DNA of 64,000 nucleotides, from the IMG/VR virus record IMGVR_UViG_3300045988_102364, one strand, 5' to 3'. Within the stretch, counting starts at the first letter, position 1. Each line of letters opens with the position of its first letter. Positions 546 through 55,852 of this stretch are shown here, piece by piece. The translations under genes and the position numbers were made by a program. Below the pieces are notes generated by a model. It did not search any database. It saw only the letters and a list, made by a program, of their open reading frames with translations, and was not told the DNA's origin. This DNA comes from a virus.

Positions 546-701
546 AATAAGAATAGAAGCTGACGATGAAACTATCTTTTATGCTCACATACGAAGAGAG
601 AGTTATGGCAAGGATATAGCTATCGCAGTGAAAGATAGAGATAAAGATGAAGTGGAAACAGTGTTACATTGTATTAAAGAAGAATTGATTAGAGGAAGAT
701 C

Positions 702-4724: not shown

Positions 4725-4775
4725 GGCGCGAATTGCCTATCTTTGTGCTATTATTAATCAAAAAAATATAAGCAC

Positions 4776-6156: not shown

Positions 6157-6171
6157 AAAAAAATAAGAACC

Positions 6172-6774: not shown

Positions 6775-6789
6775 AAACAAGGAGGAAAT

Positions 6790-6999
6790 ATGGAAAAGAA
6801 GGAATTTAAAGTAGGAGAAGTGTTTGATGCCGGACTTGTGAGATTAAAATGCGTGGAACCTACGGCACCAGATGCAGGATGTGAAGGATGTATATTTAAC
6901 GACCACATTACATGCGGGTCGGTAGATGTAGTCGCAGGCCCGTGTAGTCACGCGGAGAGGGAGGACAACAAGAATGTTATTTTTATTAAAGCTGATTAG
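6790..6999 (+). CDS. small Cys-rich hypothetical protein
   Basis: 69 aa; preceded by strong AGGAGG Shine-Dalgarno at 6779-6784. Confidence 0.3.
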   Translation: MEKKEFKVGEVFDAGLVRLKCVEPTAPDAGCEGCIFNDHITCGSVDVVAGPCSHAEREDNKNVIFIKAD

Positions 7000-7001
7000 G
7001 C

Positions 7002-7715: not shown

Positions 7716-7954
7716 GAATTAGAAAGATAATAGAGGATATAATTATTACTCAGTTTCTTAATTCGGAAATGGATATAGTTCATGAAGAAGATGTGTCGTT
7801 TGAAGAACTTGGATTAGATTCTCTTGATCAAATTGAACTCGAGATGATGGTGGAACAAAAATTCAATATTGTTGTTAATGATGACAATATTAAATCCATC
7901 AAAGATATGACTGATCTTGTTTACAAAATAAAAACAGAAGGACATGGGAAATGA
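7703..7954 (+). CDS. acyl carrier protein
   Basis: 83 aa; FEELGLDSLDQIELEMMVEQKFNI matches the ACP phosphopantetheine-attachment DSL motif and helix II. Confidence 0.75.
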   Translation: MEKVRIRKIIEDIIITQFLNSEMDIVHEEDVSFEELGLDSLDQIELEMMVEQKFNIVVNDDNIKSIKDMTDLVYKIKTEGHGK

Positions 7955-8438
7955 TATAATTTTATGCATGGCTTTAATAGCATCATTTGCTTTTGTTATA
8001 CAGTTTTTATTGTCGATATTAGGATCTGATTTAGATACGGATATTGACATTGATAGCGCTTCTGATTTAAGTATGTCTTTGTCGGACATCATATCATTCA
8101 AGGGCATAACACATTTCATCCTTGGATATAGCTGGACTACCTACTTTTCGGGTTCTCATTTAGTAGGGGTTGTGATAGGGTCGTTTTTCTTTATCGTTTT
8201 GTTTTACGTATATAAATTACTTCTTAAGTTAAAACAAGAAATGGTGTACGAATGTCCGGAAGATTTAAATGGCAGAGAGGTGGAGATAGTATTTAGATCA
8301 GGTAAGAATCATTATATGGTAAATATTTCGAAAAATGGAAGACAGGAACAGATGAGAGTGAGGTGCTTGTCTGGAAAAAATTACAAAAACGGTGACAAGG
8401 TGAATATAAAATACGAAGAAGGAGAATTAAGTATCTAA
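7944..8438 (+). CDS. NfeD-like membrane protein (flotillin partner)
   Basis: Three hydrophobic segments followed by a C-terminal beta-rich domain (VEIVFRSGKNHYMVN...GDKVNIKYEEGEL); sits immediately upstream of flotillin as in yuaF-floT operons. Confidence 0.55.
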   Translation: MGNDIILCMALIASFAFVIQFLLSILGSDLDTDIDIDSASDLSMSLSDIISFKGITHFILGYSWTTYFSGSHLVGVVIGSFFFIVLFYVYKLLLKLKQEMVYECPEDLNGREVEIVFRSGKNHYMVNISKNGRQEQMRVRCLSGKNYKNGDKVNIKYEEGELSI

Positions 8439-8469
8439 TTTTTTTATCAACAATTAAATTTTAAAAGTT

Positions 8470-10170: not shown

Positions 10171-10187
10171 ATACAATGGCCCAAGGT

Positions 10188-10256
10188 TACACTTGGGCCT
10201 AATTGAAGAAATAAAAGCAGCATTCATAGATTTCCTGCCGGCAGGAACAGTGCTTT
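10188..10256 (+). terminator. two stem-loops after the flotillin gene (GGCCCAAG..CTTGGGCC and 16-bp palindrome TTCCTGCCGGCAGGAA)
   Basis: Perfect inverted repeats directly downstream of the floT stop; no strong U-run. Confidence 0.35.
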
Positions 10257-10323
10257 ACTAATTACGATATTTTTAACATGGATTTTGGACAAGATTTAGA
10301 ACCAGAAGAACTGACCAAGCATT

Positions 10324-10683
10324 ATGATCAGTGTTATGGAATTGATTTTGAAACAGAAGAAGAGGAGGATGAAGAGTATGACCGATGAGGAATTTGCATT
10401 AGATAATAAGAAAAAGGTTGTTGTAAGAAAAAGAATATCTTATTTAAACAAAGGGGATAAAGTGTGGATCGTGTCTTCCGACGGGTATCTGCTACACACG
10501 GACGTAGTTAGAGCCGAACGCGGACGGTCTTATGTGGATATAGATGGGATTCTGTATTGGAAGCGAGGATTAGATGGCAAGCATCGTAATCGTAATAACT
10601 ACATGCAGTTTGCCATGACACCAGAAGACGGTAAGAAGTATGTCGTATATTACCCGGAAGGATTTAAAGACAATGACTTATGA
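10324..10683 (+). CDS. hypothetical protein (likely start at ATG 10378 after GAGGAGG)
   Basis: ORF with internal SD-ATG. Confidence 0.3.
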   Translation: MISVMELILKQKKRRMKSMTDEEFALDNKKKVVVRKRISYLNKGDKVWIVSSDGYLLHTDVVRAERGRSYVDIDGILYWKRGLDGKHRNRNNYMQFAMTPEDGKKYVVYYPEGFKDNDL

Positions 10684-11699
10684 TGGTCCCGGAAACGCAT
10701 TTGCTATATAAGGAGTTTAATGGTGTAAAACGTCTTGCCATATCTTATTCCCAGATAGATACGTTTCTTACCTGTCCAATGAAATGGTATAAGACTTACG
10801 TAGAGGGCAAAAGGTCTACGGAAAAACAAGAAGCTACGTCTTATGGTACGGTTATCCATAAGACACTGGAATACTTTTTTAAGAACGGAAGACAGCCTTC
10901 TGGTAAAGACCTTGGAGAAGCAATAAGTTACTATGCTTACCAGGAAGACATACCTTGGCAATCACCGGAAAATATGATGATAGCCATGAAGCAATCTGGA
11001 GAGCTTCTTGCTTGGATTATAGATCTATTTAAAAAAGACGGGAATAGGTTTATGATAGCTGATAGTGATCTTAATCCCTGTGAGAAACTCATCAGACACG
11101 GTGCCATAATAGGAGTCGAAGAGGATTTTGTGCTACCGTACCGTCTTCCTAAGCCTGTTAACATAAATGGAGTAATTCATACTCATGTGTACATAGTAGG
11201 ATCGGTAGACCTTCATCTGGCTATAAAAAGCAAGAACGTAGTTCACCATTATGTCATAGATTGGAAATCAGGTAATAAGGTTTTTGATTCTAAGAAGTTG
11301 GAAACAAATTTACAGCATCCTATATATTCATTTTACATCTATAGAAAATATGGTGGAGTTCTGCCAGATATGAACATCTATTTCTTTACCAGGACCAGGC
11401 AGTACCAAAAGGTTAAGGTGGATGAGGAACGTAAAACAAAATCTATAGAGATGCTAAATGACACTTTGTCTAAAATGTATGATTTTGAAGATAATAGTGT
11501 AAAATCATTTCAAGCGTACATCCAGGGAGCAGAAGGAGCCAGGTATAGCAAGCGGCGTGCCACCCTAAGCCAGCCTGTTTCGCAAAACAAGCTACCCTGC
11601 CCGTCAGCACTGTGTTATTATTGCGACTTTGGATTACATAACAAAAACGAATGCCCTTTCTCTTCGGATTGGGATCCGTCTAAAAAGATAAAACGATGA
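10680..11699 (+). CDS. Cas4/RecB-like PD-(D/E)xK exonuclease with Fe-S cysteine cluster
   Basis: N-terminal Cys (FLTCPMKWY), core VIDWKSGNK D-x-K motif, and C-terminal CPSALCYYCDF...C three-Cys cluster characteristic of Cas4-like nucleases. Confidence 0.6.
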   Translation: MMVPETHLLYKEFNGVKRLAISYSQIDTFLTCPMKWYKTYVEGKRSTEKQEATSYGTVIHKTLEYFFKNGRQPSGKDLGEAISYYAYQEDIPWQSPENMMIAMKQSGELLAWIIDLFKKDGNRFMIADSDLNPCEKLIRHGAIIGVEEDFVLPYRLPKPVNINGVIHTHVYIVGSVDLHLAIKSKNVVHHYVIDWKSGNKVFDSKKLETNLQHPIYSFYIYRKYGGVLPDMNIYFFTRTRQYQKVKVDEERKTKSIEMLNDTLSKMYDFEDNSVKSFQAYIQGAEGARYSKRRATLSQPVSQNKLPCPSALCYYCDFGLHNKNECPFSSDWDPSKKIKR

Positions 11700-11838
11700 A
11701 ATACGATGATGTTCAAAAGTTAAGAACAAAATACCGGCAAGATCCGGAAGTTATAAACTTGACATACATGAGAGACGTTGCTGTACGATGCGGGAATTTC
11801 AAGAAAGCGTTTGAGCTTCAGGAGAAGCTGGAGGATAT

Positions 11839-12189
11839 ATGGTTCAACTATTTAAAAGGAGTGTAATGAAAGAAGATCTAATATGTGGAGTAGCGATCCT
11901 TTTGTATTTAGTTTTATTATACTTACTCACGACAGCTTTCATAAAAACAGGTAGAGCAGTAGATCGTTATAAGATGAAGAAGAAAACTGACAAAATCAAA
12001 GTAGGTCAAAGATACGAACATAAGAACTACTTTGAGGATCCATTTGAAAGAGGCAAGCATGTGATTAAGATATTAGACATAAAAGAAGAGTACGCTCTAT
12101 ATGAGTACGAAGAAAAACTATATATACGTTCTTCTGTGAGTCTTGAAGATATTGCTAAAAGATATGTTTTAATTACTGATATAAAATAA
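11839..12189 (+). CDS. hypothetical membrane protein
   Basis: 116 aa with one hydrophobic helix. Confidence 0.3.
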   Translation: MVQLFKRSVMKEDLICGVAILLYLVLLYLLTTAFIKTGRAVDRYKMKKKTDKIKVGQRYEHKNYFEDPFERGKHVIKILDIKEEYALYEYEEKLYIRSSVSLEDIAKRYVLITDIK

Positions 12190-12195
12190 GGGATT

Positions 12196-12582
12196 ATGGA
12201 AAAGAAAGTCACAATCAAAGAAGGGATGGATATTTTTTACAAAAATGCAGGGAAAGGTATATGGGTCTATATTGGACTTTTTGGAAATAAAGTGCTATCC
12301 ATTTTAAAAAACAAAGGTGTTATTGCATGCGAAAACGATGCTGAATATTGCGTGTTGATGGATGGAGAAGATCATTTCATAAGTATAGCAAAAGACATGA
12401 GTCACGACTATTGTTGTGAGTACGTTGTAGAAAGAGCAGAAGCCTACAGAGACTACCCCTCCAAAGGCGCTACATGCAGTGTATGCCTGTTTGAAGATAA
12501 TGAGAATAAAGCAAGGGAGATGTTGAAAGAGGCGATAATAGAACTTTCAAAAAATAATATAATAGATTGTGATGGGCTTTGA
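12196..12582 (+). CDS. hypothetical protein
   Basis: 128-aa ORF. Confidence 0.3.
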   Translation: MEKKVTIKEGMDIFYKNAGKGIWVYIGLFGNKVLSILKNKGVIACENDAEYCVLMDGEDHFISIAKDMSHDYCCEYVVERAEAYRDYPSKGATCSVCLFEDNENKAREMLKEAIIELSKNNIIDCDGL

Positions 12583-13993
12583 ACTTAGACCTTACCAGAA
12601 AGAAGCAGTAGATGCCGGGCTTAAGTTTCTTACAGGAAGATCTAAAAAGCCTGGCATAATAGTAGCCCCATGCGGAGCGGGTAAGAGCCTTCTGATATCC
12701 AAGATAGCACATGAGATAAATAGACCAACGTTAGTATTGCAGCCATCAAAAGAAATTCTGGAGCAGAATTATGCTAAGGCTGTATCGTTTGGCTCCGAAC
12801 CTACTATATACTCTGCCTCATGTGGCGTAAAGGAATTATCGGCTATGACTTATGCTACACTTAAAAGCATAAAGAAAGACGTAGCAAGGTTGAAAGATAC
12901 AGGGATAGATACCTTATTGATAGACGAATGTCATTCAGGATATTCTCCTGAAGAAGGTTCTGAATTTATGGAGTTTATGAGCGAGTTTCCCGAGGCGAAG
13001 GTGCTGGGCTTCACCGCCACTCCCTGCCGCCTCAGAGCCTACAGTTCCATGCTGGAAGGAAACTATAGCAAACTTAATATGCTGACAAAAGACGAGCATA
13101 ACTTCTTCAAGAAGTTAGTTCATGTAATACAAATACAAGAGCTAACTTCTCAAGGTTTTTGGTGTCCACTTAAGTACGAACGATGGTCATTTGATGAATC
13201 GGCTCTGATGTTAAACAGTACCGGAGCCGAATATACCAACGAATCTATTAAAGAAAGCATCGTACGAAATGGCTTAAACAACTCTATCTACAAGCGTCTT
13301 CTTCAGCTTATGAACGAGCGTAAAGCCATTTTGGTTTGTATGGATTCTATCGAATCATGTAATAGAATATCAGAGTTTATGAATGCCAAAATGGGAGCCA
13401 TAACAGGTGTCGTAACATCGCTAACAACCAAAAAGAAAAGAGAGCAAATCATATCAGATTTCAAAGAAGGTAAGTTGAAGGTGGTTTTTAATTATTCAAC
13501 GCTTGCTACCGGATTTGATTTTCCTGAACTTGATTGTGTGATGTTTGGTCGACCGACTTTCTCATATTCAACGTATTACCAAATATTAGGCCGCGCCGTC
13601 CGCATCCATCCTGACAAGAAAGAGGCGCTGATTATTGATTGCTGCGACAACATGAGGCGTTTCGGTCGGATAGAAGACTTGACAATCGAGCAATTCCCTT
13701 CTAAGGGCTGGTGTATGTTTGCCGGCGATCAACTTCTGTCCAATATAAGGATGGGTGATATTATTACCAAAGACGAGATCCTTCGCCGGGCGGCCTCACT
13801 TAAATCTGTGAATGGAGATGGTAGGAGAGAAGACGATCTTGACAGTATAATAATGTGGTTTGGAAAATATGAAGGAATTAGATTCAAGGACATACCGGTG
13901 TCGTATTTTAGGTTCTTGGCTGAGAATATGGCAGTAAAACCGGGAGATAGGAAAGAAAAGATTATCGAATATTATAATAGGATAAAGGCATGA
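12569..13993 (+). CDS. superfamily-2 DEAH-box DNA helicase
   Basis: Motif I GIIVAPCGAGKSL, motif II LIDECH, motif III GFTATPCR, motif VI ILGRAVRIHP; C-terminal FGKYEGIRFKDIP..YFRFL resembles a DUF3820-type tail. Confidence 0.8.
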   Translation: MMGFELRPYQKEAVDAGLKFLTGRSKKPGIIVAPCGAGKSLLISKIAHEINRPTLVLQPSKEILEQNYAKAVSFGSEPTIYSASCGVKELSAMTYATLKSIKKDVARLKDTGIDTLLIDECHSGYSPEEGSEFMEFMSEFPEAKVLGFTATPCRLRAYSSMLEGNYSKLNMLTKDEHNFFKKLVHVIQIQELTSQGFWCPLKYERWSFDESALMLNSTGAEYTNESIKESIVRNGLNNSIYKRLLQLMNERKAILVCMDSIESCNRISEFMNAKMGAITGVVTSLTTKKKREQIISDFKEGKLKVVFNYSTLATGFDFPELDCVMFGRPTFSYSTYYQILGRAVRIHPDKKEALIIDCCDNMRRFGRIEDLTIEQFPSKGWCMFAGDQLLSNIRMGDIITKDEILRRAASLKSVNGDGRREDDLDSIIMWFGKYEGIRFKDIPVSYFRFLAENMAVKPGDRKEKIIEYYNRIKA

Positions 13994-14346
13994 ACAACAA
14001 GAGAAGAAAAAAAATATCGGATGTTATTAACAACGTAAATAAGTATAAAACGGATTTTGAATACATCAAATCAAAGTTGTCGGAGTTGAAGTGCAACATA
14101 AATTCAGCCAAAGATGATGTTGATATGATTTTAGACGAAGAGACTGAGGCGAGAGATAATATACCGGAATCGTTACAAGACTCAGAAAGATATTGGGAGT
14201 CAGATCAGGCTGTAACTGATATGGAGGAGGTGGTTGATGACATGGAAAGTATTATAAATGATATAGATGATGTGATTTCGACCATAGATGGGAGCATTAA
14301 AACCATAAATGGTTCTATTAAAGTAAATTTGGAAGGAATAATATAA
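13990..14346 (+). CDS. hypothetical acidic protein
   Basis: 118 aa, D/E-rich. Confidence 0.3.
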   Translation: MNNKRRKKISDVINNVNKYKTDFEYIKSKLSELKCNINSAKDDVDMILDEETEARDNIPESLQDSERYWESDQAVTDMEEVVDDMESIINDIDDVISTIDGSIKTINGSIKVNLEGII

Positions 14347-14634
14347 ATGGAAACAAATCAATTAAGGGAAATACTTAAATTGTATGGTCTTCAACATGAT
14401 GTTGTTATCAACAAAAGTTCAAGAAGGTATTCTATTATCTTAGACAATAACATAATAGGAACCAATCACGACAAAGAGAGGGTGGTTGTGTTCCGTCCTA
14501 TACCGGAAGGAAAAAACACATTCTGCATGGAGCGAGATAGGTTCTACACGGAGTTTGAAGAAGCTTTTGATGATGATAAAGCCATAGAAGCCGTAAGACA
14601 ATATTTTGAAAACAACAAAAACAGAAAGTCATGA
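14347..14634 (+). CDS. hypothetical protein
   Basis: 95-aa ORF. Confidence 0.3.
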   Translation: METNQLREILKLYGLQHDVVINKSSRRYSIILDNNIIGTNHDKERVVVFRPIPEGKNTFCMERDRFYTEFEEAFDDDKAIEAVRQYFENNKNRKS

Positions 14635-14969
14635 ACGAAAATGAAGTATTTAGATTAAAGGGCAGAATAGCCATATCCAACCTATCACGTGAGGACAAGG
14701 ATATGATAAATAGCATCCTTGATGATATCAATAAAAAGGATGAAGATGAAAAAGGGTATGTCTATACCGTGAGAGTAAAACTAAACAATGGAAAGGTTGT
14801 ACATGCTACTTTATTTTTCAAAGACAAGAAAGGTCCCACATTTGAAGACTTAAAGAAGGAGCTTGATGATATGGGAGTTAAAAGTGATAATTATAGCAAT
14901 AACGGCATAATTATCATTAACCGCATTGTCATGAGCGGAGAAGAATTTGACCGCTTTACAGGAGAATGA
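14631..14969 (+). CDS. hypothetical protein
   Basis: 112-aa ORF. Confidence 0.3.
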   Translation: MNENEVFRLKGRIAISNLSREDKDMINSILDDINKKDEDEKGYVYTVRVKLNNGKVVHATLFFKDKKGPTFEDLKKELDDMGVKSDNYSNNGIIIINRIVMSGEEFDRFTGE

Positions 14970-15013
14970 TGGATTATATTATTATATCAAGCGATTAAAA
15001 CAACGATAAAACA

Positions 15014-15571
15014 ATGGAAAAGATGGACAATAATACTAAAAACATCCTTTATCCAAAAGGATCTATTTTTCGCATGTTGGAAAGTGATGTAATCAGTTCC
15101 GAATTAGAAATAGCCAGAGGAGCTATAGTGGAGGCAGTATCAGACATAGAGGTAGATGATGAATATGCTGAGGTTTGTTGCAATGGAGAGACGTTTATCA
15201 TAGGAACGGACATTATGGGTATTATTCCTGTCAAAGTATCCAGAGAAAACAAATCGGTGAAAAATGACATCATTGACGATAAACTACGATGGGATTTGCT
15301 TCCGATGGAAGAAATTGAGGACATTGTAAAAGTCTATCATGCTGGAGCCAAGAAATATGGGCCTAATAATTGGCAGAATCTTGACAACGGCTTTGAACGG
15401 TATCGCGCGGCAATGTTTAGACACCTGATAGAATACATGAAAGGAGAAAGAGTGGATTCTGATACAGGATGTTTTCATCTTGCACAATGTGCATGGAATT
15501 GTATAGCTATGCTGTGGTATGATAAGCACGGGAAAGGATTAATACCATTAAATAAGGAGGAAAAGAAATGA
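15014..15571 (+). CDS. possible dATP/dGTP diphosphohydrolase-domain (DUF5664-like) protein
   Basis: KVYHAGAKKYGPNNWQN...ERYRAAMFRHL resembles the phage dGTP/dATP pyrophosphohydrolase N-terminal domain; recalled from memory only. Confidence 0.3.
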   Translation: MEKMDNNTKNILYPKGSIFRMLESDVISSELEIARGAIVEAVSDIEVDDEYAEVCCNGETFIIGTDIMGIIPVKVSRENKSVKNDIIDDKLRWDLLPMEEIEDIVKVYHAGAKKYGPNNWQNLDNGFERYRAAMFRHLIEYMKGERVDSDTGCFHLAQCAWNCIAMLWYDKHGKGLIPLNKEEKK

Positions 15572-15876
15572 CAATAGAACAACTAAATTATTTATTAAGA
15601 AAAGAGCTTTATGCTATAAAAAAACATAAAGACAATATTGATAGAATCAAAAAAGAATACTTTGATTCCAATTATGGGTTAAAAGAAGGAGATAAGATCC
15701 GTATTTTACACGAAACAGGAGATGAAATGATAGGCTTCTTGAAAAAAGTTGAAGTATGTGAAGACGGAGATCTGTACTTGACAATCCAAAAACAAAACGA
15801 AAAAGGTGATAGAGGCAGAGGAAAATGGAATATGTATCTATCATCAAAATTAATTAAAATTGAAAAATGTGTATAA
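15568..15876 (+). CDS. hypothetical protein
   Basis: 102-aa ORF preceded by AGGAGG. Confidence 0.3.
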   Translation: MTIEQLNYLLRKELYAIKKHKDNIDRIKKEYFDSNYGLKEGDKIRILHETGDEMIGFLKKVEVCEDGDLYLTIQKQNEKGDRGRGKWNMYLSSKLIKIEKCV

Positions 15877-17060
15877 TGCCATGAGAGTGTTAAGTTTATT
15901 TGACGGAATGTCATGTGGTCAAATAGCGTTAAAAGAAGTAGGGATCACACCTGAAGTATATTATGCATCAGAAATAGATAAGTTTGCTATTAAACAAACG
16001 CAATTAAATTTCCCTAATACGATACAAGTAGGAGATGTAAGGGATTTGAATGTAGAAGATCTTGGACACATAGATCTTATTTTAGCCGGCAGCCCATGTA
16101 CAGATATGTCCTTTTCTGGAAAAAGAAAAGGGTTGTCTACCGTAGAAGGAATAGAAATCAAATCACTTGATGAGTATCTTGAATTAAAAAAAACAAGGAT
16201 TTGAATTTGCCGGTCAGTCTTACTTATTCTGGGAGTTTATTCGTATTTTGAATGATGTAAGAAAAACTAATCCTGATGTGTTGTTTCTTCTTGAGAACGT
16301 TAAGATGGGAAAGAAATGGGAGCCGGTATTCGATGATGCTATAGGGTGTAAAGGCAATCATATTAATTCAGCACTTGTTTCCGCTCAAACCAGGAAACGT
16401 ATTTATTGGACTAATATTCAAGGCGGCATTATCCCTCAGCCTAAAGACGAGGGTTTGACCATAAGTGATATAGAGGAATATGAAGTAGATGAAAAATATT
16501 ACTTATCTGAAAAAGTTTTAAACAATTTAGCTTTTCACTTGAAAAGAAATCACGACAAGGGGAATTATTATGGAGCTAATATTAAAACAAAAGATGAAAA
16601 ATCCAATACTGTTACCGTAAAGGGTAAATACACGTACGATCTTATTTGTGTAGCAATGAGAGGTAGGAATCCAGAAAAACCTACATGTAGAGAATCTGGT
16701 CTTAAAACAGTTCAGATGATTGAATTTAAAAACGATGGAAAATCCAATTGTCTCACAACAGTTCAGAAAGATAATCTTATTTTCCAAATACCAAGAGGAT
16801 TTAACAAAGGTGGATTTCATGAAGATAAGACTCCAACATTATCTTGTAATTCATATGATAGAAACAATTTTATCATACAGAGAACATTACATGGCGATTT
16901 CAGAATAAGAAGATTAACCCCTACAGAGTGCTCCAGGTTACAGACTGTACCAGATTGGTATAAATGGGAATGCAGCGAAACCCAACAGTACAAGATGTTG
17001 GGAAACGGGTGGACTATTAAAGTTATTGAACATATACTTAAAAGAATAAAAGAATCATGA
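15860..17060 (+). CDS. DNA (cytosine-5)-methyltransferase, interrupted by a frameshift in an A8 tract (possible pseudogene or phase-variable gene)
   Basis: Motif I LFDGMSCG and motif IV GSPCTDMS in frame A (15860-16204). After the A8 run at 16186-16193 the other frame continues with QGFEFAGQSYLFWEFIRIL...LFLLENV (motifs V/VI/VIII) and QYKMLGNGW (motif X). Confidence 0.75.
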
Positions 17061-17599
17061 TTAGAGCAAGATTTTACATTAAAAAATCCGACTGCGACAA
17101 CGACTACCGTCCAGTCAAATGGCCTATAAAATATCCATATTGGTGTAGTGCAGAATCCGATAATTCATTTGTATTGGTGGCGTATGCTGAAGATGAAGAC
17201 AGCATAAAAGAACTGTGGCCGGAGGCGTATGATATTAATGTCTTAGAGAAAGATACCGAAATTAAATTCACATTAAGATTTCCTAAGCCTAAATGGTATG
17301 AATTGCAAGAAGAGAGATTAGAAGAGTATGATAAATTATATGGTAAATTCGTATGGGTTACGGACATGTGTCTAAAAGATGGGAAAATAAGAAAGGTAAA
17401 AGCCAGAATAGAAGATTGTGGTGGTCTTTTATTAGCCGACACTCCTGGTCGTTACACCCCTTATCAGATAGGGGATTGTGCTTTTGAAAGCAAGGAAGAG
17501 GCTTTAAAACATGCAGAGGAACAGAGAACGGATTTAATTAAGTCTCTTAGGTTACAAATACTCGAACTTGAAAATCTAAAATTTGAATGCGATGATTAA
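17057..17599 (+). CDS. hypothetical protein
   Basis: 180-aa ORF. Confidence 0.3.
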   Translation: MIRARFYIKKSDCDNDYRPVKWPIKYPYWCSAESDNSFVLVAYAEDEDSIKELWPEAYDINVLEKDTEIKFTLRFPKPKWYELQEERLEEYDKLYGKFVWVTDMCLKDGKIRKVKARIEDCGGLLLADTPGRYTPYQIGDCAFESKEEALKHAEEQRTDLIKSLRLQILELENLKFECDD

Positions 17600-18305
17600 T
17601 TACGCGGCAAAAACCAGAAAAGCTTATTTGATAAACAATTTCGATAAGATTCTTAACAGTCTTAACACGCTTCATTCAACGGTTGAGACCATGACGTTGT
17701 TCGTAAACGACCAGGCTTATAATTACATTCTTAAGCTAAAGGAAGTAATTAAAACCAGTCCTATGTATAAGCACAATATCAAGCGTCTTTTAAATGACAT
17801 GGACAAAGAGATAAAGAGGTACAATGCTTCTATCTACTACATAAATAAAGAGCGTAGTGAGGTTATAGCTGATATAACACAAGCGATGGAAGATTGCCTC
17901 ATGCCATACATAGACGATCTGGCCGGCGCTATAAGGGCAGCCGTGTGGTCGAGGGGTGTGTCCGAGGAGCGGACGGAAGCGGCGGTACTGTCCCTAATCG
18001 TATCCTCCTTGGCCACGACATCAGGCAGACTTATCTCAGGTGGATATCAGATCATGAAAGAAATGGGTGGAGGTCAAGGTGGTAATCCATTTACGTTTAT
18101 GAGCATTGATAAGATAAGACACTTATCTACATCATTATCTGATGCTATTACCGGTGGAGAAATAGCTCTTGAAGAAAAAGAAGCCAATGACATAACTAAG
18201 GCAATGGATGTTTTTATTGAGAAAATGTCTGATTCGGATATTGTTGATAAGGTGATCAGCATACTCGAAGAGGCAGAATCTAAAAATAAGGAGGAGCGAT
18301 CGTGA
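17583..18305 (+). CDS. hypothetical protein
   Basis: 240-aa ORF; contains a GC3-rich codon patch at about 17905-18030. Confidence 0.3.
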   Translation: MNAMINYAAKTRKAYLINNFDKILNSLNTLHSTVETMTLFVNDQAYNYILKLKEVIKTSPMYKHNIKRLLNDMDKEIKRYNASIYYINKERSEVIADITQAMEDCLMPYIDDLAGAIRAAVWSRGVSEERTEAAVLSLIVSSLATTSGRLISGGYQIMKEMGGGQGGNPFTFMSIDKIRHLSTSLSDAITGGEIALEEKEANDITKAMDVFIEKMSDSDIVDKVISILEEAESKNKEERS

Positions 18306-49013: not shown

Positions 49014-50033
49014 TCAATCATGTACGGCAGACAAACCACCCGAATCAGGGTCGTACTTAAGACCGCATGCCCAGCGATAGTCCTTAAGCGCTCTCTTGTA
49101 CAAAAACAGCACTGTCTTGGAAACTATTTTCTTCATAGATTTGGTTAAAACCTCTTCTGTTGAAACAGACATCAGACAGCTATTCAAGAACGACCTGACA
49201 TTGGAACCGAACAAGGTCTTCACCATTTTTCTAAACGTTCTAAAAAGATATGATGACGAAAGAGCCTTTAATCCATTGCGAGCCAGTCTCTTATTCAAAT
49301 ACGAAACAGCCTTATCAGATAGACATATCCTATTCTTTCCTTCGCTATCTACCTCTGATGAAAACCACGAATATAAAGTGGTAGGATGTTTCTTAAGGTG
49401 ATTGATGAAGGAAGTCATTATCCCTTCTTTTAAAGCCCTTTTGTGAGCTACGCATGCAGCAATCTTCTCTTCTCTTTTTAAAGAGCTATCAAGACACCTA
49501 AACACCGTCCTATCGTCTCCGATGAAATACTGAGGACGTTCTTCCTTGAACTTAGCCCGATAAGCGGCATATCCTTCCTTACGGAGCATATCTATCTGAG
49601 ACCGGATATAGAACCTTACACACTTTTCTTCAGCCTCTTGCACGCTTTTAAGATAAGGAACTGACTTTCTCCCATATCGAAGATAGTCATAAACCATAGC
49701 TTCAATAAAGTCATTATATGGAAAGAATCTCCCAAATCCAAAGTTCCAAACTATGAAACATCGCACTCTATCTTTCCAGTAATCAGATATGAGAAAGTTG
49801 CTACAATATCTCAACCTCCTGTCTTTCTGATAGAAATGATGAGTATGTTTGTCATAAAATAGATTAAAATATCTCAAATTGCCTAAACACTGACCGGCTG
49901 GACGGCGTACTACATTGTACCCTAAGTTGCTGAAGCTATTGTATATAACTTCTATCGGAGAGACCTGCTCTTTCTTGAAGAGCTTGTCGTGTAACTTGTG
50001 AGGATTCATTATTTCAGTTATTTTTGTTTCCAT
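49014..50033 (-). CDS. hypothetical protein, weakly Rep/HUH-like
   Basis: 339 aa, basic; KHTHHFY and YAAYRAK / SYLNKR motifs loosely recall rolling-circle initiator HUH and Tyr motifs; very uncertain. Confidence 0.3.
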   Translation of the reverse strand: METKITEIMNPHKLHDKLFKKEQVSPIEVIYNSFSNLGYNVVRRPAGQCLGNLRYFNLFYDKHTHHFYQKDRRLRYCSNFLISDYWKDRVRCFIVWNFGFGRFFPYNDFIEAMVYDYLRYGRKSVPYLKSVQEAEEKCVRFYIRSQIDMLRKEGYAAYRAKFKEERPQYFIGDDRTVFRCLDSSLKREEKIAACVAHKRALKEGIMTSFINHLKKHPTTLYSWFSSEVDSEGKNRICLSDKAVSYLNKRLARNGLKALSSSYLFRTFRKMVKTLFGSNVRSFLNSCLMSVSTEEVLTKSMKKIVSKTVLFLYKRALKDYRWACGLKYDPDSGGLSAVHD

Positions 50034-50092
50034 ATTGTTTTTGTTGTTTAGTGCAAATATATGATTTTACATAAAAAGAAAAAAATGCACTG

Positions 50093-50138
50093 CCTTGTAT
50101 CCGGTTTGAGAGAAATAGGATACAAGGTTTTTTATTTT
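50093..50138. terminator. bidirectional intrinsic terminator-like hairpin
   Basis: 10-bp perfect stem CCTTGTATCC/GGATACAAGG, T-run downstream on plus (TTTTTTATTTT), A-run upstream (T-run on minus). Confidence 0.45.
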
Positions 50139-50350
50139 ATGACGGTTTGGATAAGAGACGGGAAAATGACCCTGAACGTAACCGTCTGACCGTCAGGAGT
50201 GGGACAACAAATCTTGAATTAAAACTACGCCTATAAATAGTCTCCGTTTTCCTTAATATTAAGACCATTTTCAATGATCTTACTCATTATATTATTTGTA
50301 TTATTTTATATATTTTACCATTTATTCATATAATTGTTTACAGTGAATGA

Positions 50351-50525
50351 ACTTAACGACCGAAGGGAGTTAAGTGAGTGAACGGATTGACAAATTACTT
50401 TTTTCGTCTATTGTATTGTTTGCCTAATTGTGTTAAAAGATTGAGTATCGTGACCGAAGGGAACGATGCGAAAGAACTTATAATATTTAAAAACGACTGA
50501 ACCTATCGACTGAAGGGAGATAGGT
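50351..50525 (+). repeat. three hairpins with covarying 7-bp stems and conserved 11-nt loop GAC(C/T)GAAGGGA
   Basis: 50351-50375 ACTTAAC/GTTAAGT; 50445-50469 GTATCGT/ACGATGC (one G-U on plus); 50501-50525 ACCTATC/GATAGGT; loops gaccgaaggga, gaccgaaggga, gactgaaggga. Confidence 0.6.
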
Positions 50526-50785
50526 GATGGAGTGACGTTAATAGTTATATTAGGTAGCCAGTGAAGAATTAGGCAGGCTGGTAGGCGAGACGAGCGTCCA
50601 TGCCCGTCAGGATAGTAGAAGTACGTAGGTCTGTTCTGTCAAACCAAGGCGATGATAGTTCCATCCTTCACGAAATCGCACAAAAAATCCGGATTATATT
50701 GATATCGTTCTTCAACCTTCGGCATCCGCATAACGAGTCTCAAATCCGGATTCGCTTTATTAATATGAGAAATAAAATAATTGTT

Positions 50786-53188
50786 CTAATTATCAGTGAC
50801 GCCTTTAATGCGAAGTTGTATATTGGGAAGCACGGCATTAATCAAAGCCATTTTCTTATCCTCTTCGCTTTCTTTTTCATGCTGTTTATACATCATGCTG
50901 TAATCACTGTCATCACCATCCTTTTTCCCGTCTAACGTCAGTAAATGATTTACGATGTCCTTACCATACGTTTCAGTCCATGTACGGAATCTATCTTCCT
51001 CGGACTGTCCCTCCTGGGACGGGGCTTCCGGGTTAGGAAGGGCGGCTGCCACTTCTACCTCTGGAAGTGTTACCGATGCTGCTATTTCAGCATCATCTCC
51101 GAATCCCATTTGACCATACGAAGATACGGAATTTTCTTCAATTTCCAAACCAAGATTTTTAGCAACCTCCATAGCATAATTATAACGGTCATCGTTTCTT
51201 ATAACACTCTTATGAGGACGTCCTGCTCCTTGGTTCCAAGCTACTACAGCATCTTTAAGGTTATCGGCGTTCATAAAGTCCTGCCGGCTGTAATTGTAAT
51301 AACCTGGTCCTTCTTTTCCTTTTCTTGTGTATAAGAAATTAGAATATCCGGTTTTCCCTTCGTATTCATCAGCTAAGAACTCAAGTTGGTCTTTGAATGT
51401 TGGTGTAGAATGACCTTTCTTTTTGGCGTGCTTGAATAGCTTATCCATACGCTCATTATGCCATTGCTGTATGCCGTATGATGTTCTGTTGTCTCCGTAT
51501 ATGTCATCTTTAAGACCGGATTCAGCCATGAGGTTACCTATGATGGCGAGCGCCTGTATCTTGGACATGCCGCGCTTATTAGTAAAGTATTCATAAGCTT
51601 CACGCTGCTTGCCAACTACGCCACCTTCCTTCTTGATGTTGGTATTGTATTTCTTTCCATTCCATGTAAATTCCTTAAGACCTCTTTTCCTGGCTTCTTT
51701 AAAGGCTTCACCTCTTGTAGTGGAAATAGAGTCTTGTAGCTCAAGATCATTTTTTATTCCAAGAATAGCATCAACAATAGTATTATCATTTTTATCAACA
51801 TTATCCAAAACATAAGATTGACTTATCAAATTTGATACGCTCTTTCTATTTTCATAAGTTCCTTCTTTATCTGATGGAGCTTCAAAAGCATACACAAGTG
51901 GATACGAATAATCCGTATCTGGATCTTCTGACATAAATTCGTTTACTGCATGAATAGCTTTTTTGTATTTAGTATCTTTTATACTATACTTCCCAGCATC
52001 TTGAACATGATCATAAAATCTGTCTATCATATAGTTGATATATCCACGCTTATCGCTCTTAAATCTCTCTTTATCTCTTTCAAACTCTTTTGGCGGATAT
52101 CTTTTGTAATATTCTTGAAAAAGTCCCCTAAATTTTCCATCCTCAGATACAGCGTAGGGGTTTCCACCAGATTCTTCAATAATATTTCCAAGTACGGCTT
52201 CTATCTGGCGTTGATTAAAACCTTTATCATATAAAGCATCATAGATCATATTCATCCCTTCTACGTCCATAGTACGATGCTTACCCTTACCCACACGCTT
52301 CATATTTTCATATTTGGATTTGAATAAATCCCAATCTATTTCCGGCTTAGAAGAATCCCCTCCTTGTTTTTTGGATCTTATCTCCATCCTTTTATCCAAA
52401 TCATTCTTTGAATCAATAATGGATCTAAACAGGATCTTGTTTGGATCATTCTCTTCGTATGGGATTTTATCTTCTACATAATCCCTTATTTCAAAAGGAT
52501 ATCCTATTGTATCAAGAGTCTTAGTAACAACCCCAACACCAAAAGGTTGATCGCTTCTATAAAAATCGTACTTATCTTTCACAACCATCCTACCTCTATC
52601 ATCACGGTACATGGTAAAACTTGATAAGCCTGATAAATCATTTAAATCTCCGTAAGCATCCGGTATAAAATTATATTCGTTAAATACCTGATGTTCTCCG
52701 GTTCTGGCTTTTTTTAAGAGATCTATCCCCTCTTCCACCATTCCAAGTTTCCTACTTGTTACATCCCTTAACTCCTCCAAATCAGATACGTCCTTGCCTG
52801 CAACTTTTCCATCAATTATCTTATTATCTAAAGAATCAAGCTCCCTTCCATATTTTTTAGCCATTTTCTCCCACCCACCATTTATCCTGTCAGATATAAT
52901 GGATTTGATATTGTCTGGTATTCTGACAATCCCATTTTCTTCTTTCAGATTATTTGGTTGGTTTAAGAATCTAAACCAAAGATTCTGACTAAAATCATCT
53001 ACATTGGCTTTCGGAACATCTTGACCAAAAAATTCCATTATTTTGGTTTTTAATCCTCTTTCATTAGCATACACATCAGGTGTTATATTAGATGCCAGAT
53101 ATTCTCTAAGTTTTACAAACGGACCAATTTTATTCCATAATGTTTTTGGTTGTTTGTCCTTTACATAATTTTTAATTTTCTTTGCCAT
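50786..53188 (-). CDS. tail-associated peptidoglycan hydrolase with two tail-lysozyme-like domains
   Basis: IEAVLGNIIEESGGNPYAVSEDG and QALAIIGNLMAESGLKDDIYG..YGIQQW..QLEFLADEY match the phage tail lysozyme signature (GN..ESG..P ... G..QW). Confidence 0.6.
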   Translation of the reverse strand: MAKKIKNYVKDKQPKTLWNKIGPFVKLREYLASNITPDVYANERGLKTKIMEFFGQDVPKANVDDFSQNLWFRFLNQPNNLKEENGIVRIPDNIKSIISDRINGGWEKMAKKYGRELDSLDNKIIDGKVAGKDVSDLEELRDVTSRKLGMVEEGIDLLKKARTGEHQVFNEYNFIPDAYGDLNDLSGLSSFTMYRDDRGRMVVKDKYDFYRSDQPFGVGVVTKTLDTIGYPFEIRDYVEDKIPYEENDPNKILFRSIIDSKNDLDKRMEIRSKKQGGDSSKPEIDWDLFKSKYENMKRVGKGKHRTMDVEGMNMIYDALYDKGFNQRQIEAVLGNIIEESGGNPYAVSEDGKFRGLFQEYYKRYPPKEFERDKERFKSDKRGYINYMIDRFYDHVQDAGKYSIKDTKYKKAIHAVNEFMSEDPDTDYSYPLVYAFEAPSDKEGTYENRKSVSNLISQSYVLDNVDKNDNTIVDAILGIKNDLELQDSISTTRGEAFKEARKRGLKEFTWNGKKYNTNIKKEGGVVGKQREAYEYFTNKRGMSKIQALAIIGNLMAESGLKDDIYGDNRTSYGIQQWHNERMDKLFKHAKKKGHSTPTFKDQLEFLADEYEGKTGYSNFLYTRKGKEGPGYYNYSRQDFMNADNLKDAVVAWNQGAGRPHKSVIRNDDRYNYAMEVAKNLGLEIEENSVSSYGQMGFGDDAEIAASVTLPEVEVAAALPNPEAPSQEGQSEEDRFRTWTETYGKDIVNHLLTLDGKKDGDDSDYSMMYKQHEKESEEDKKMALINAVLPNIQLRIKGVTDN

Positions 53189-53697: not shown

Positions 53698-55332
53698 TTA
53701 AATCTTAATCTTCTTAATTTCATCAATCATATTCTTATATCCGCAGAACTTGCTGTTAATAACATCGAAGATAGATTCTGACCAGCCAGCTATGTTCAAA
53801 ATATTAGATCCTTTGTAAAACATCTCACTTCCATATCCTTGAATAGAAATAGAAACGATTTTGCAATTTGGATTCACTTTCTTGAACTTTTTCAAAAGTT
53901 CAGCGAATTTACCATATTCATAATTGGAACTTTTTTCCCATACAATAGATTCGCCATCTCCTATCTGCATATCTGAAATAACGTACAAGTTATCTACTTT
54001 TATCTTATCTTTGACGCACTTTTCCAAGAATGCAAAAAGACCGTTTTCAGTAGCATCACCGCATTCTTCTCCGGCAGTAAAAGATTTTTTGTTATTCCAT
54101 AAAACACCTTTACTTCTATCATATTCGTAATTGATAAGTTTGTCACCAAACATACCAATAAATACGTCAGGAAGCACAGAAGCAATCATACAGCCAAATA
54201 AGTTACCAATGACAGCCGTATTTGTTTTGCTAAAGGCAGACACTTCAGAAGACCCTCCCATATCTCCACGTACAGAGCCAGAGTGGTCAATCAGGATAGC
54301 CGACCGCCCCTCCAATACCGGCAGGTTCTTGCAGGAGATGGTTATGGCTTTCTCCAACGCATCTAAAATCTTATATTTGTCACGCGCTGTTAATTTGGCT
54401 CGTTTCTTATCCGACTCAAATACAATATCATTTTCGGAACCATCAGTGCCTATATTTTCAACCTCTTTGAAAGCTGAAGCAAAACGGAAAGGAAGCATCT
54501 TCGAATTAAGCACCTTCTCTTCTATTGTAAGCTGCCTACAAACTTCATCTATTTGATCAGGTGCGTATTTGATTATGTTTACAAGGTTACGAACCATATT
54601 AAAAATAGGCATACCTTTTACATTAGAAACCACGTCCCGAATAGCGCCACCTAAAGCTTCTTTCTTTTCCTTATTGTCTTTCTTATCCTGTCCGGCTTTA
54701 GACATTTCTTTTTCAAGAATCTTGCTTTCGTATAACCCGGACAAAGACCTACCTTCTATAAGGTACTGGAAAGCCGTTTTATTAGCCTGATTGCCTTTAG
54801 GGTGAAATAAGTTTACGAGGTCAACCATAGTAATGACCCTACTGTCCATCTTATACTTATCAATCCGATACGGATCAAGACCCTCCAAAGCCGTCTTAAA
54901 TCCTTTCTTAATAGCGCTGGATATACTTCTTAACTTCTTTGGATTTTTGTCGTTAAGAGCCGCATAGCAGCCAAGGATTTCGCTCATATCATCAGGACGC
55001 ATAACGATCTTGTTATAAAACCTTGAAGCCCATTCCTTACCCGATACTTTGCGGGCAAGGACAGAAGCCATAAGATGCGTTACTGACCTAAGCTTTCCTT
55101 CTTTCCTGACATACAATGCTGTTTGTGCTGCGAAATATGGATCTACTTGATCCATAAGGTCCTTAATCCTGTTCACCTTGTCTTTTTCTTTCTCATAATA
55201 AGAATCAGACAACATGGTAGTCATTACCGTAGATACCAACTCTTCTTCTGCGTTAGGCTTATACGCGTTCTCGCCCATGTGATTCACGATCGTAGGTTTA
55301 ACACCTTCATCCTTTTTGTTAAACTTTCCCAT
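53698..55332 (-). CDS. rsr: Ro60/Rsr ortholog (TROVE domain + vWA domain)
   Basis: N-terminal ENAYKPNAEEELVSTVMTTMLSDSYYEKE...YFAAQTALYVRKEGKLRSVTHLMASVLA matches TROVE; C-terminal vWA with MIDAS AILIDHSGSV; 544 aa as in Ro60. Confidence 0.8.
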   Translation of the reverse strand: MGKFNKKDEGVKPTIVNHMGENAYKPNAEEELVSTVMTTMLSDSYYEKEKDKVNRIKDLMDQVDPYFAAQTALYVRKEGKLRSVTHLMASVLARKVSGKEWASRFYNKIVMRPDDMSEILGCYAALNDKNPKKLRSISSAIKKGFKTALEGLDPYRIDKYKMDSRVITMVDLVNLFHPKGNQANKTAFQYLIEGRSLSGLYESKILEKEMSKAGQDKKDNKEKKEALGGAIRDVVSNVKGMPIFNMVRNLVNIIKYAPDQIDEVCRQLTIEEKVLNSKMLPFRFASAFKEVENIGTDGSENDIVFESDKKRAKLTARDKYKILDALEKAITISCKNLPVLEGRSAILIDHSGSVRGDMGGSSEVSAFSKTNTAVIGNLFGCMIASVLPDVFIGMFGDKLINYEYDRSKGVLWNNKKSFTAGEECGDATENGLFAFLEKCVKDKIKVDNLYVISDMQIGDGESIVWEKSSNYEYGKFAELLKKFKKVNPNCKIVSISIQGYGSEMFYKGSNILNIAGWSESIFDVINSKFCGYKNMIDEIKKIKI

Positions 55333-55391: not shown

Positions 55392-55448
55392 TGAAAAAAT
55401 CTATCAAGATGTTTACTCAATGAGGGAAAAGATGAAGTTAGTGTAAAC

Positions 55449-55522
55449 AATGAAATAATGGATTTGAACCATCGACCTATACTTTAAAAGAGTATCGCTC
55501 TATCCATCTGAGCTAAATTCGA
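55449..55522 (-). ncRNA. tRNA-Lys(UUU)-like element with non-pairing acceptor stem
   Basis: Minus strand: D-arm GCUC-AGAUGGAUA-GAGC, anticodon arm AUACU-CUUUUAA-AGUAU (anticodon UUU), T-arm GAUGG-UUCAAAU-CCAUU; positions 1-7 UCGAAUU versus 66-72 AUUUCAU give only 4/7 pairs; flanked by an 11-bp long-range stem (55431-55441 with 55528-55538). Confidence 0.5.
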
Positions 55523-55670
55523 AGTAACTAACCTCATCACCACTCATTAGTTTTTATGTATTTCAAACAGAGGAAAAACGGAGCCGGAGGTTTAAAATTA
55601 TAATATGGACTAATTTCGAAGTAACCGAACTCCTCACCATCTATATATTTTATTAAAACAGGGAGAACCT

Positions 55671-55795
55671 GGAAGGTGTTTTGATATGAAAGGAGGTTTT
55701 GATCTACCAACTGATCTAATTTTTCTTACATGAAAAATATAGGACTCGAACCTATGACACAAACCGAAGTATCACCTTCCATCACCACTGTCTTG
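55671..55795 (-). ncRNA. YrlA-like Y RNA candidate: circularly permuted tRNA-like module inside a long interrupted stem
   Basis: Minus strand order: T-arm AUAGG-UUCGAGU-CCUAU (55739-55755), closed acceptor-like hairpin AUUUUUC-AUGUAA-GAAAAAU (55719-55738), D-arm UAGAUC-AGUUGGUA-GAUC (55701-55718). Enclosed by stems GGUUU/AAACC and GGAAGGUG/CACCUUCC (55671-55678 with 55773-55780). Confidence 0.55.
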
Positions 55796-55821
55796 CATTA
55801 TAATCTCTCTTGATTACGATG

Positions 55822-55852
55822 CAAATATAGACACTAAAATATGATTTACAAA
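55822..55852 (-). promoter_or_regulatory. Bacteroidetes-type promoter (-33 TTTG, 19-nt spacer, -7 TATATTTG) driving the ncRNA cluster
   Basis: Minus strand reads TTTG-N19-TATATTTG, an exact match to TTTG / TAnnTTTG with consensus spacing; predicted TSS near 55815-55818. Confidence 0.5.

Follow-up and report, generated by a model that had tools for sequence, protein, structure and literature searches.

A Three-Hairpin Array with Tandem G.A Segments in an Accessory Cassette of Epsilon crAss-like Phages

The crAss-like phages are among the most abundant viruses of the human gut, and their non-coding elements are barely characterised. We analysed a 64,000-nt stretch of viral DNA (IMG/VR record IMGVR_UViG_3300045988_102364; hereafter the window) that carries three copies of an elaborate hairpin in a non-coding gap near 50 kb. 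The structure of these hairpins belongs to the plus strand, is conserved in diverged relatives, and is linked to a neighboring gene for a 339-aa protein on the opposite strand. We favor the interpretation, to which we give about an even chance of being correct, that the array is part of a ~420-nt plus-strand noncoding RNA (ncRNA) that would be transcribed divergently from this gene, whose product has a winged-helix sub-domain, and would serve as a platform for multivalent protein binding.

The window is part of the genome of an epsilon crAss-like phage and is 97% identical over the region to csAssE-Sib (OR575929.1, 151 kb, human gut). A search of GenBank phages with the DNA and with two flanking proteins returned csAssE-Sib as the sole related one. 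The paper describing this phage contains no mention of Ro60, a hairpin, a replication origin, or non-coding or intergenic features (PMC11054128).

Fold, strand and conservation of the three hairpins

An initial annotation of the window, made by a model from the letters and predicted reading frames, had pointed to three hairpins with 7-bp stems and an 11-nt loop in a non-coding gap of some 750 nt. Both the gap and the hairpins hold up. The gap spans 752 nt (50034-50785) and contains no open reading frame (ORF) of at least 60 aa and no small ORF conserved between lineages, and the hairpins lie at 50351-50375, 50445-50469, and 50501-50525. Two outer conserved GA/GA blocks around two pairing positions had been overlooked. 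When the copies are aligned, each reads GA nn GA, a 7-nt arm, GACYGAAGGGA, the complementary 7-nt arm, and GA n'n' GA, where nn and n'n' pair as well. The resulting unit is a rod with the order GA-nn-GA / 7 bp / GA / 2 bp / G-N-A triloop / 2 bp / GA / 7 bp / GA-nn-GA. The three units (Table 1) are 61-76% identical with wholly different stems, and their spacing of 94 and 56 nt is irregular.

The loop had originally been drawn with C3/C4 paired to G9/G10 around a GAAG tetraloop. Tip variants of relatives (GACCGAAGGGA, GACTGAAGGGA, GACTGAAAGGA, GACCGTAGGGA, GACCGGAGGGA, GAGCGAAGCGA, and GAACGTAGTGA) show that this model is wrong by one register. Across three lineages, loop positions 3 and 9 covary as C-G, G-C, and A-U, and positions 4 and 8 as C-G, U.G, and U-A, so the pairs are C3-G9 and C4-G8 and the cap is a G-N-A triloop (variants GAA, GUA, and GGA). 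A tandem G.A block, G1.A11 plus A2.G10, lies beneath these pairs in the tip. The T in the third copy does preserve a wobble on the plus strand, as had been claimed, but its partner is G8 and not G9, because C4-G8 closes the triloop rather than C4-G9. This U4.G8 pair is U4-A8 in the arrays of 18 related loci, and the T.G pair in the stem of unit 2 becomes T-A in variants.

The pattern GACYGAAGGGA occurs exactly three times in the window, always on the plus strand, where 0.08 occurrences are expected and none of 100 shuffled sequences reaches three. A covariance model of the 37-nt unit recovers only the same three sites when both strands are searched (57-62 bits, E ~1e-12). A search of the gap against Rfam 15 gave nothing at the gathering threshold, and at E <=10 only noise of <=20 bits, none of it over the array.

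Several familiar classes of element were considered and rejected. CRISPR-type repeats are excluded by the arrangement of conserved tips and variable stems, which is the reverse of a CRISPR array; the sole match to a CRISPR direct repeat at E <=10 (RF01367, 17.5 bits, E 2.2, far below the gathering score) lies outside the array at 49954-49990, inside the 339-aa gene. The units are not intrinsic terminators, as there is no T-run 3' of any of the three. K-turn, box C/D, SECIS, and hammerhead motifs (UGA ... GA) were dismissed by eye, there being neither a 3-nt bulge with a C-stem nor a CUGANGA...GAAA core.

The strand to which the structure belongs could be established from several properties. 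Wobble pairs are strongly asymmetric, with 18 G.U cells against a single C.A cell when the plus strand is read, which bears out the earlier argument from G-U pairs confined to that strand. On the minus strand the G.A blocks would read C.T and T.C. The plus-strand RNA of positions 50330-50560 has a predicted folding energy of -54.8 kcal/mol (z -2.9), compared with -29.5 (z -1.1) for the minus strand, and over a 428-nt stretch the z values are -1.8 (plus) and -0.8 (minus). The whole gap is purine-rich on the plus strand, against the local trend, as are the sense strands of this genome. Together these properties assign the structure to the plus strand, antisense to all neighboring genes: window genes at 30-18305 are on the plus strand, and all from 18.4 kb onward, including those for giant virion proteins and the tail lysozyme, are on the minus strand.

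An exact-pattern scan found the array in ~95 IMG/VR contigs, along with chance singletons whose arms do not pair, and 61 human-gut metagenome DNA contigs also carry it, with no transcript-like short contigs among them. At identities of 91% or more, all of these contigs are too similar for deep covariation and added little. Their single-base stem variants are C-to-T and A-to-G changes that yield U.G or G.U on the plus strand, and we count such wobble pairs, as evolutionary intermediates, in favor of RNA.

More informative are homologs of the 339-aa protein at 60-83% identity. Each is preceded by a gap of ~640-1,025 nt with a homologous array of three hairpins, antisense to the protein gene. Lineage C (L133-L135) occupies the same lysozyme locus as the window, and lineage B (L128-L132 and L136) has an unrelated context, after a DUF6808 gene. 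Two diverged lineages therefore carry the array, and its stems covary. Of the stem cells in 21 distinct perfect-stem units from relatives, 95.7% are paired, a share that falls to ~40% with slid partners, and two-sided changes occur in 9 of 11 pairs; because the counts combine paralogous copies with phages that are close kin, the number of independent events is modest. All six G.A/A.G columns are invariant or nearly so. In units 1 and 3 of lineages B and C, the 7-bp stem is replaced by xCGAA(U)C/GUGAGx', which, with the pairing partly assigned by eye, gives three base pairs, then a further G.A/A.G block and a 2-bp segment from which a U bulges. One rod can thus exchange Watson-Crick for G.A layers.

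A search for related loci with the protein alignment covered the 80 closest, a range that does not extend to distant relatives. In bacterial genomes the hairpin pattern gave 35 scattered single matches in unrelated phyla, consistent with chance. RNAalifold applied to the whole unit returned the hairpins and a few weak long-range pairs only, the inter-lineage alignment being too uncertain for more. The copy number of cassette sub-elements varies: L152 and L192 have four hairpins rather than three, and in L107, L149, and L188 the purine-rich block after hairpin 3 (aligned to ~50575-50680) is present in two or three tandem copies of ~90-190 nt.

A mobile cassette with an orphan protein gene

Genomic comparisons show that the gap and the 339-aa gene are inherited as one unit. 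In two relatives whose Rsr (Ro60) proteins are 89% (L124) and 73% (L126) identical to that of the window, the lysozyme gene leads directly to the next structural gene, with neither the gap nor the 339-aa gene in place; the window and L124 cease to be homologous where the 339-aa gene has its stop codon. The cassette is found at two loci, namely the lysozyme locus in the window and lineage C, and the position after the DUF6808 gene in lineage B. Two arrays, at distinct loci, occur in several IMG/VR contigs, such as _103017 (L008, L162) and _119245 (L034, L180). At the lysozyme and DUF6808 loci, two unrelated gene contexts, the array and close homologs of the protein are always co-inherited. The absence in L124 and L126, the change of locus, and the double copies identify 49014-50785 as an accessory module that exists in at least three diverged versions. 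No convincing terminal inverted repeats or target duplications were found at its ends.

The 339-aa protein has no sequence match in Pfam, PHROG, or PDB. Its family comprises only 22 cluster representatives among 1.84 billion proteins, and 185,579 bacterial and archaeal genomes contain no relatives. An AlphaFold2 (AF2) model based on 13 sequences reached a predicted local distance difference test score (pLDDT) of 73.9, and two AF2 models submitted to three fold searches matched only a winged-helix sub-domain and uncharacterised phage proteins. The winged-helix sub-domain is of a nucleic-acid-binding type. The family has no invariant acidic, His, Cys, Ser, or Tyr residue, which speaks for a binding protein and against an enzyme. 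An HUH nickase was rejected: some homologs have an HAH triplet, but its first His is not conserved. The initial annotation had labeled the gene a possible initiator, for which we found nothing beyond a Rep3_C match (E = 0.03) in two of seven family members.

Distant members of the family have a different upstream region. A homolog of 305 aa in L121 (23% identity, E 8e-8) lies behind a 462-nt gap without such hairpins. A still more distant homolog of 416 aa (L281, E 1.7e-17) is encoded in another crAss-like phage, between genes for two giant virion proteins. The 1.1 kb of non-coding DNA upstream of it (L281 1906-3000; also in L280 and L282) combines an AT-rich stretch and a terminator-like hairpin with repeats of the TTCGCTCA type, 7-8 in number. 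Members of this protein family always seem to be accompanied by a long structured or repeat-rich upstream region.

Table 1. Features of the cassette and its surroundings (window positions)
Feature	Position	Strand	Remarks
339-aa ORF	49014-50033	-	One flank of gap; cassette partner; orphan family with winged-helix sub-domain
Whole cassette: protein gene plus 752-nt structured non-coding region, 1.77 kb	49014-50785	.	Defined by presence/absence in relatives
-7 promoter box TATATTTG of 339-aa gene, Bacteroidetes-type	50054-50061	-	TAnnTTTG match at equivalent place in all three lineages
Hairpin with 10-bp stem and 15-nt loop GGTTTGAGAGAAATA, then T-run	50093-50139 (hairpin 50093-50127)	+	Upstream of array
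Palindrome CTGAnnnTCAG, then GGTGGGACAA-like block (GAGTGGGACAA in window)	50186-50207	.	Invariant columns in three-lineage alignment
AT-rich region, ATTCAT-type repeats, sigma-70-like promoter	50260-50340	+	TTTATA, 18 nt, TATAAT 50329-50334
Unit 1	50345-50381	+	GA AT GA ACTTAAC GACCGAAGGGA GTTAAGT GA GT GA; covariance model match 61.5 bits
Unit 2	50439-50475	+	GA TT GA GTATCGT GACCGAAGGGA ACGATGC GA AA GA; covariance model match 58.3 bits
Unit 3	50495-50531	+	GA CT GA ACCTATC GACTGAAGGGA GATAGGT GA TG GA; covariance model match 56.7 bits
Purine-rich block GTAGCCA..GGCAGGC.GGTAGGCGAG.., internal hairpins	50554-50650	+	Conserved in all three lineages
Long stem AAATCCGGATT ... AAATCCGGATT (repeat D13)	50685-50764	+	Contains terminator-like hairpin 50734-50754, then CTTTATTAAT (terminator scan)
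800-aa protein with Phage_lysozyme2 domain	50786-53188	-	Other flank of gap
TROVE/Ro60 (Rsr) gene	53698-55332	-	3.2 kb from array

The remainder of the gap contains several conserved elements besides the array (Table 1). TAnnTTTG is the known promoter consensus of Bacteroidetes, and for this reason the box in front of the 339-aa gene is read as its promoter. The stem of the hairpin at 50093-50127 covaries among the three lineages (CCTTGTATCC/GGATACAAGG, CCCTGTATCC/GGATACAGGG, and CCTGTCCC/GGGACAGG), its loop is conserved, and in 3 of 3 lineages a T-run follows immediately 3' on the plus strand only. This element had been taken for a bidirectional terminator following the array. It instead lies upstream of the array on the plus strand, with a T-run adjoining the stem on that strand alone, and is better described as a terminator-like insulator. 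Maintenance of its 15-nt loop while the stem covaries goes beyond what a plain terminator needs. Judging from its invariant columns, the CTGAnnnTCAG region is a candidate protein-binding site in a divergent control region.

The AT-rich region carries 2-4 copies of (T)TATTCAT in each lineage. In a promoter scan its sigma-70-like promoter scored 10 of 12 matches, and the TATAAT box ends 10 nt (7-11) before unit 1. Hexamers resembling a -10 box align to the same place before hairpin 1 in L129 (CATAAT/TAATAT) and L133 (TATACT), and in the window units 2 and 3 are likewise preceded, at a constant distance, by TATAAT/CCTAAT-like boxes (repeat family D1). In minimum-free-energy folds, the linker between units 1 and 2 pairs with the purine-rich block, and A-U/G-C exchanges between lineages fit this pairing. 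Candidate long-range helices include G(U/C/A)(C/U)UAUU with GGUAGGC, and GCCUAAUU/AAUUAGGC in the window lineage versus GCCUGAUU/AAGCAGGC in lineage C. The long stem that follows probably marks the 3' end of the plus-strand unit, which is thus flanked by terminator-like hairpins on its own strand, and could also end the lysozyme transcript on the minus strand. In lineage C (L133) it is replaced by AGCCGAGCCAT/ATGGCTCGGCT. Just past the right end of the window, csAssE-Sib (L001 29041-30264) has a gene for a TnpB-family RNA-guided endonuclease beside a 'muzzle' protein gene.

Competing interpretations of the array

According to the interpretation we favor, the array would constitute the 5' part of a structured ncRNA gene whose transcript would begin near 50341, just after the TATAAT box, and end near 50760. 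This gene and the divergent winged-helix gene would make up a self-contained cassette, bracketed by terminator-like hairpins, that moves between epsilon crAss-like loci. Each unit forms a stiff rod of ~17 layers in which Watson-Crick segments alternate with tandem sheared G.A pairs, with a constant tip and stems that are free to vary as long as they pair. Since the three units have the same tip, the RNA would display three equivalent tips, and these may form a multivalent platform for a protein. The partner would most likely be the cassette's own protein, or otherwise a host protein that the RNA titrates. The crAss-like phage phi14:2 has middle promoters similar to sigma-70 -35/-10 elements and expresses long intergenic ncRNAs at high levels (bioRxiv 10.1101/2020.03.07.982082). 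Of the readings offered by the initial annotation, the one with most support is an ncRNA antisense to its flanking genes, with which strand, fold, and promoter-like box agree. The data show the fold, the strand to which it belongs, its conservation, and its linkage to the protein gene, whereas transcription, the RNA ends, the binding partner, and the biological effect are what we infer. Its proposal of operator hairpins for an RNA-binding protein is compatible with a plus-strand RNA.

Several observations weigh against this interpretation. The plus strand has no canonical Bacteroidetes TAnnTTTG box upstream of the array, the sigma-70-like box being a consensus match only, and lineage B shows no clear 3' terminator. 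The long-range helices between the linker and the purine-rich block are no more than suggestive. Because a single phage clade, with three lineages, supplies all of the evidence, there are few independent covariation events, and the metagenome matches of the array are DNA assemblies. The distant protein homologs in L121 and L281 have long upstream non-coding regions that lack the G.A-rod hairpin. Furthermore, the C-G-N-A-G triloop is a classic hyperstable DNA mini-hairpin and would be unusual as an RNA cap.

A less probable but serious alternative is that the hairpins act as single-stranded DNA (ssDNA) on the plus strand and not as RNA. They might be promoter hairpins like those of phage N4, in which case the plus strand would be the template, and early in infection the ssDNA-preferring virion RNA polymerase (vRNAP) of crAss-like phages would run leftwards through them toward and into the 339-aa gene. 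Alternatively, they might be priming or initiation signals comparable to the complementary-strand origin of phage G4 or to plasmid single-strand initiation (ssi) and single-strand origin (sso) elements, with the winged-helix protein as initiator and the ATTCAT region as unwinding element. The more specific proposal, that C-GNA-G hairpins extruded on the plus strand are read by an ssDNA-preferring vRNAP (as a counterpart of N4 by convergence) or by a winged-helix initiator, we consider rather unlikely. The vRNAP promoters of N4 have a GC-rich heptamer centered on the loop, are recognized on the template strand, and include three early promoters; the apical C-G-N-A-G with a sheared G.A pair is the motif that makes them hyperstable (PMC4496689). 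One variant of the array tip reads exactly GCGAAGC. The virion polymerase gp66 of phi14:2 transcribes ssDNA efficiently, its early promoters have no sequence motif in common (bioRxiv 10.1101/2020.03.07.982082), and polymerases of this type prefer ssDNA and have no known promoter motif. The orientation also fits, since a plus-strand template would direct transcription toward the 339-aa gene, and the intervening hairpin at 50093-50127 has no adjacent T-run on the minus strand; in addition, an AT-rich stretch with repeated ATTCAT adjoins the array.

Several features count against DNA signals. Six nearly invariant mismatched positions per unit mean that the opposite strand lacks a matching arm, which disfavors cruciform extrusion from duplex DNA, and the hairpins of N4 are short and perfect whereas the array units are not. 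There is no other copy in the 64 kb or elsewhere in related contigs, so the array hairpins are not general early promoters, and the 339-aa gene already has its host-type promoter in all lineages. Spacing is irregular, the protein resembles generic winged-helix folds only, and the cassette, being dispensable in L124 and L126 and at times double, is unlike a primary origin. The iteron-like origin elements suggested by the initial annotation do not fit: iterons are three or more double-stranded direct repeats of ~17-22 bp at regular intervals in phase with the helix, from which the units differ in stem and spacing, no initiator of a recognized Rep family is adjacent, and close relatives lack the cassette. 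Cumulative GC skew of the window has no inflection at 50 kb. Both GC and AT skew change sign between 18305 and 18397, where gene orientation switches. With this sole skew inflection of the window, ~18.3 kb is a stronger candidate than the 50-kb gap for an origin or terminus of replication.

We give very little credence to a functional minus-strand transcript, either as a ToxIN-like leader or antitoxin RNA array or as a cis-regulatory 5' region of the 339-aa mRNA. The order of repeats, hairpin, and protein gene does mimic the architecture of ToxIN, a type III toxin-antitoxin system, and the cassette is accessory and mobile as defence and toxin-antitoxin modules are. However, minus-strand RNA would have C.U/U.C in place of the G.A blocks and A.C in place of the wobbles (18 vs 1), and it folds no better than shuffled sequences (z -1.1 and -0.8). 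The T-run of the intervening hairpin is on the plus strand in all lineages, and the promoter box of the gene is downstream of that hairpin. ToxIN-like modules would have identical tandem repeats, a terminator, and a toxin on one strand; here the repeats are non-identical, with stems that differ between copies unlike those of antitoxin repeats, and both structure and T-run are opposite to the gene.

The proximity of the rsr gene raised the possibility that the phage Ro60/Rsr protein has the array as its ligand, either a Y-RNA-like decoy or a second Y RNA with three Rsr-binding motifs, as the initial annotation had hinted. The Ro60 motif of bacterial Y RNAs is GNCGAAN0-1G, and vertebrate Ro60 contacts GGUCCGA (PMC4201824). 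The loop sequence ACCGAAGG resembles both, and the array is <4 kb from rsr. Moreover, GGTGATGGA on the 3' side of unit 3 recurs at the start of a YrlA-like region upstream of rsr, and all hairpin lineages belong to this clade, in which each relative examined at the rsr locus has rsr. We nevertheless regard this possibility as improbable. The motif is on the plus strand and rsr on the minus strand, and the published criterion is the same strand; its first G is A here, and unit 3 loses the C too. The array has no tRNA-like domain, and 49900-50900 has no Rfam match to YrlA, Y_RNA, or tRNA at E <=10. Rsr-positive L121, L124, and L126 have no hairpins, bacterial Rsr loci have none, and the array is tied to the 339-aa gene rather than to rsr, lineage B being at another locus. 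Rsr is already provided with RNAs of its own, encoded immediately upstream on the rsr strand and conserved in L121, so that a role for Ro60 as binding partner of the array is weakly supported.

These RNAs are encoded at 55440-55830 (minus strand), behind a TATATTTG box, as three tandem units beginning GATGGTGA(T/G)G..GTTACTTCGA. The segment at 55669-55779 (minus) matches Rfam YrlA (RF02553) with 31.2 bits (E 7.5e-5; gathering score 69) and has clear T-arm and D-arm sequences, and the three-unit layout is kept in L121 (9540-9930, plus), whose Rsr is 73% identical. Based on these sequences, the units are probably the phage's own Y RNAs. A tRNA scan of the window found a tRNA-Lys-like gene near rsr only: this 'tRNA-Lys(ttt)' at 55449-55522 (minus, 53 bits) is contained in another of the three units, has 3 of 7 acceptor-stem positions unpaired, and overlaps the repeated ACTTCGAA motif with its 5' end. 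Instead of decoding as a tRNA, it may form a tRNA-like module within a Y RNA. The csAssE-Sib record annotates a 'tRNA-Tyr' ~70 nt upstream, which ARAGORN does not report in the window. The closest non-phage Rsr homologs (L122/L123 6001-7665, 55-58% identical) lie on contigs of 200-400 kb, near genes for a methyltransferase, ClpP, and small phage-like proteins, which suggests that Rsr is carried by a prophage or mobile element in the presumed host lineage.

Comparison with known systems

The array is a well-supported structured nucleic acid, composed of rods of Watson-Crick and tandem G.A segments with G-N-A triloop caps, that falls outside Rfam families and is linked to an orphan family of winged-helix proteins confined to this phage group. 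The cassette behaves like a mobile accessory module, a pattern common among defence and counter-defence genes. A function as RNA would establish the cassette as a new ribonucleoprotein module of phages. A function as DNA hairpin signal would make the array the first cis-element defined for early transcription or replication in crAss-like phages, and one that travels on a mobile cassette of two parts. Either outcome is directly testable in cultured relatives or gut metatranscriptomes.

Iteron origins with Rep_3-type winged-helix initiators are similar in that a winged-helix gene stands beside an AT-rich, repeat-containing non-coding region. G4 oric with its three hairpins, plasmid ssi/sso elements, and F plasmid Frpo offer another parallel, as orientation-specific clusters of imperfect hairpins with conserved loop motifs in a few hundred non-coding nucleotides. 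These elements serve ssDNA replicons or transferred strands. By contrast, the array belongs to a double-stranded DNA phage of ~150 kb that has its own replication module on the other arm; no skew signal accompanies the array, and some relatives lack it.

N4 promoters P1, P2, and P3 and the hyperstable DNA mini-hairpin d(GCGAAGC) share with the array the C-G-N-A-G core, the 3-nt loop with a sheared G.A pair, C-G closing, and the GC-rich heptamer; both systems have inverted repeats of free sequence in three copies, and a structure that works on only one strand, in a phage with a virion-packaged polymerase (PMC4496689). The heptamers CCGAAGG, CTGAAGG, GCGAAGC, CCGGAGG, and ACGTAGT are all present in a strand-specific manner, but a G.A/A.G block separates them from the 7-bp stem and the rod continues with two more such blocks, whereas N4 hairpins have 5-7 perfect bp directly on the loop (PMC4496689). 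N4 hairpins lie upstream of early genes near the genome end and have a defined start site. In place of dispersed copies before early genes, the array has three only, clustered within 190 nt inside a structural-gene block on a dispensable cassette. The virion polymerases of crAss-like phages are also unrelated to the T7-like N4 enzyme.

Y RNAs (YrlA, RF02553) resemble the array in lying near rsr (within 4 kb here) and in a CGAAG-type motif similar to GNCGAAN0-1G (PMC4201824). This motif is partial in the array (ACCGAAGG; ACUGAAGG in unit 3) and is placed in the hairpin tip. Unlike Y RNAs, the array is on the strand opposite to rsr and has no T or D arms and no 5'-3' terminal stem.

Among RNA elements, the boxB (nut) sites of phages lambda and P22 and coat-protein operators are alike in presenting several hairpins with a conserved purine-rich tip on free stems, and their GNRA-like or G.A-closed loops are surfaces for protein recognition. 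A boxB site is a 5-bp stem with a pentaloop, beside boxA, downstream of early promoters that feed operons. The array differs in having no plus-strand genes downstream, rods of ~49 nt with periodic G.A blocks, and no known N-like partner. With its unusual architecture, unmatched in Rfam, the array belongs to the broad kind of phage structured non-coding elements.

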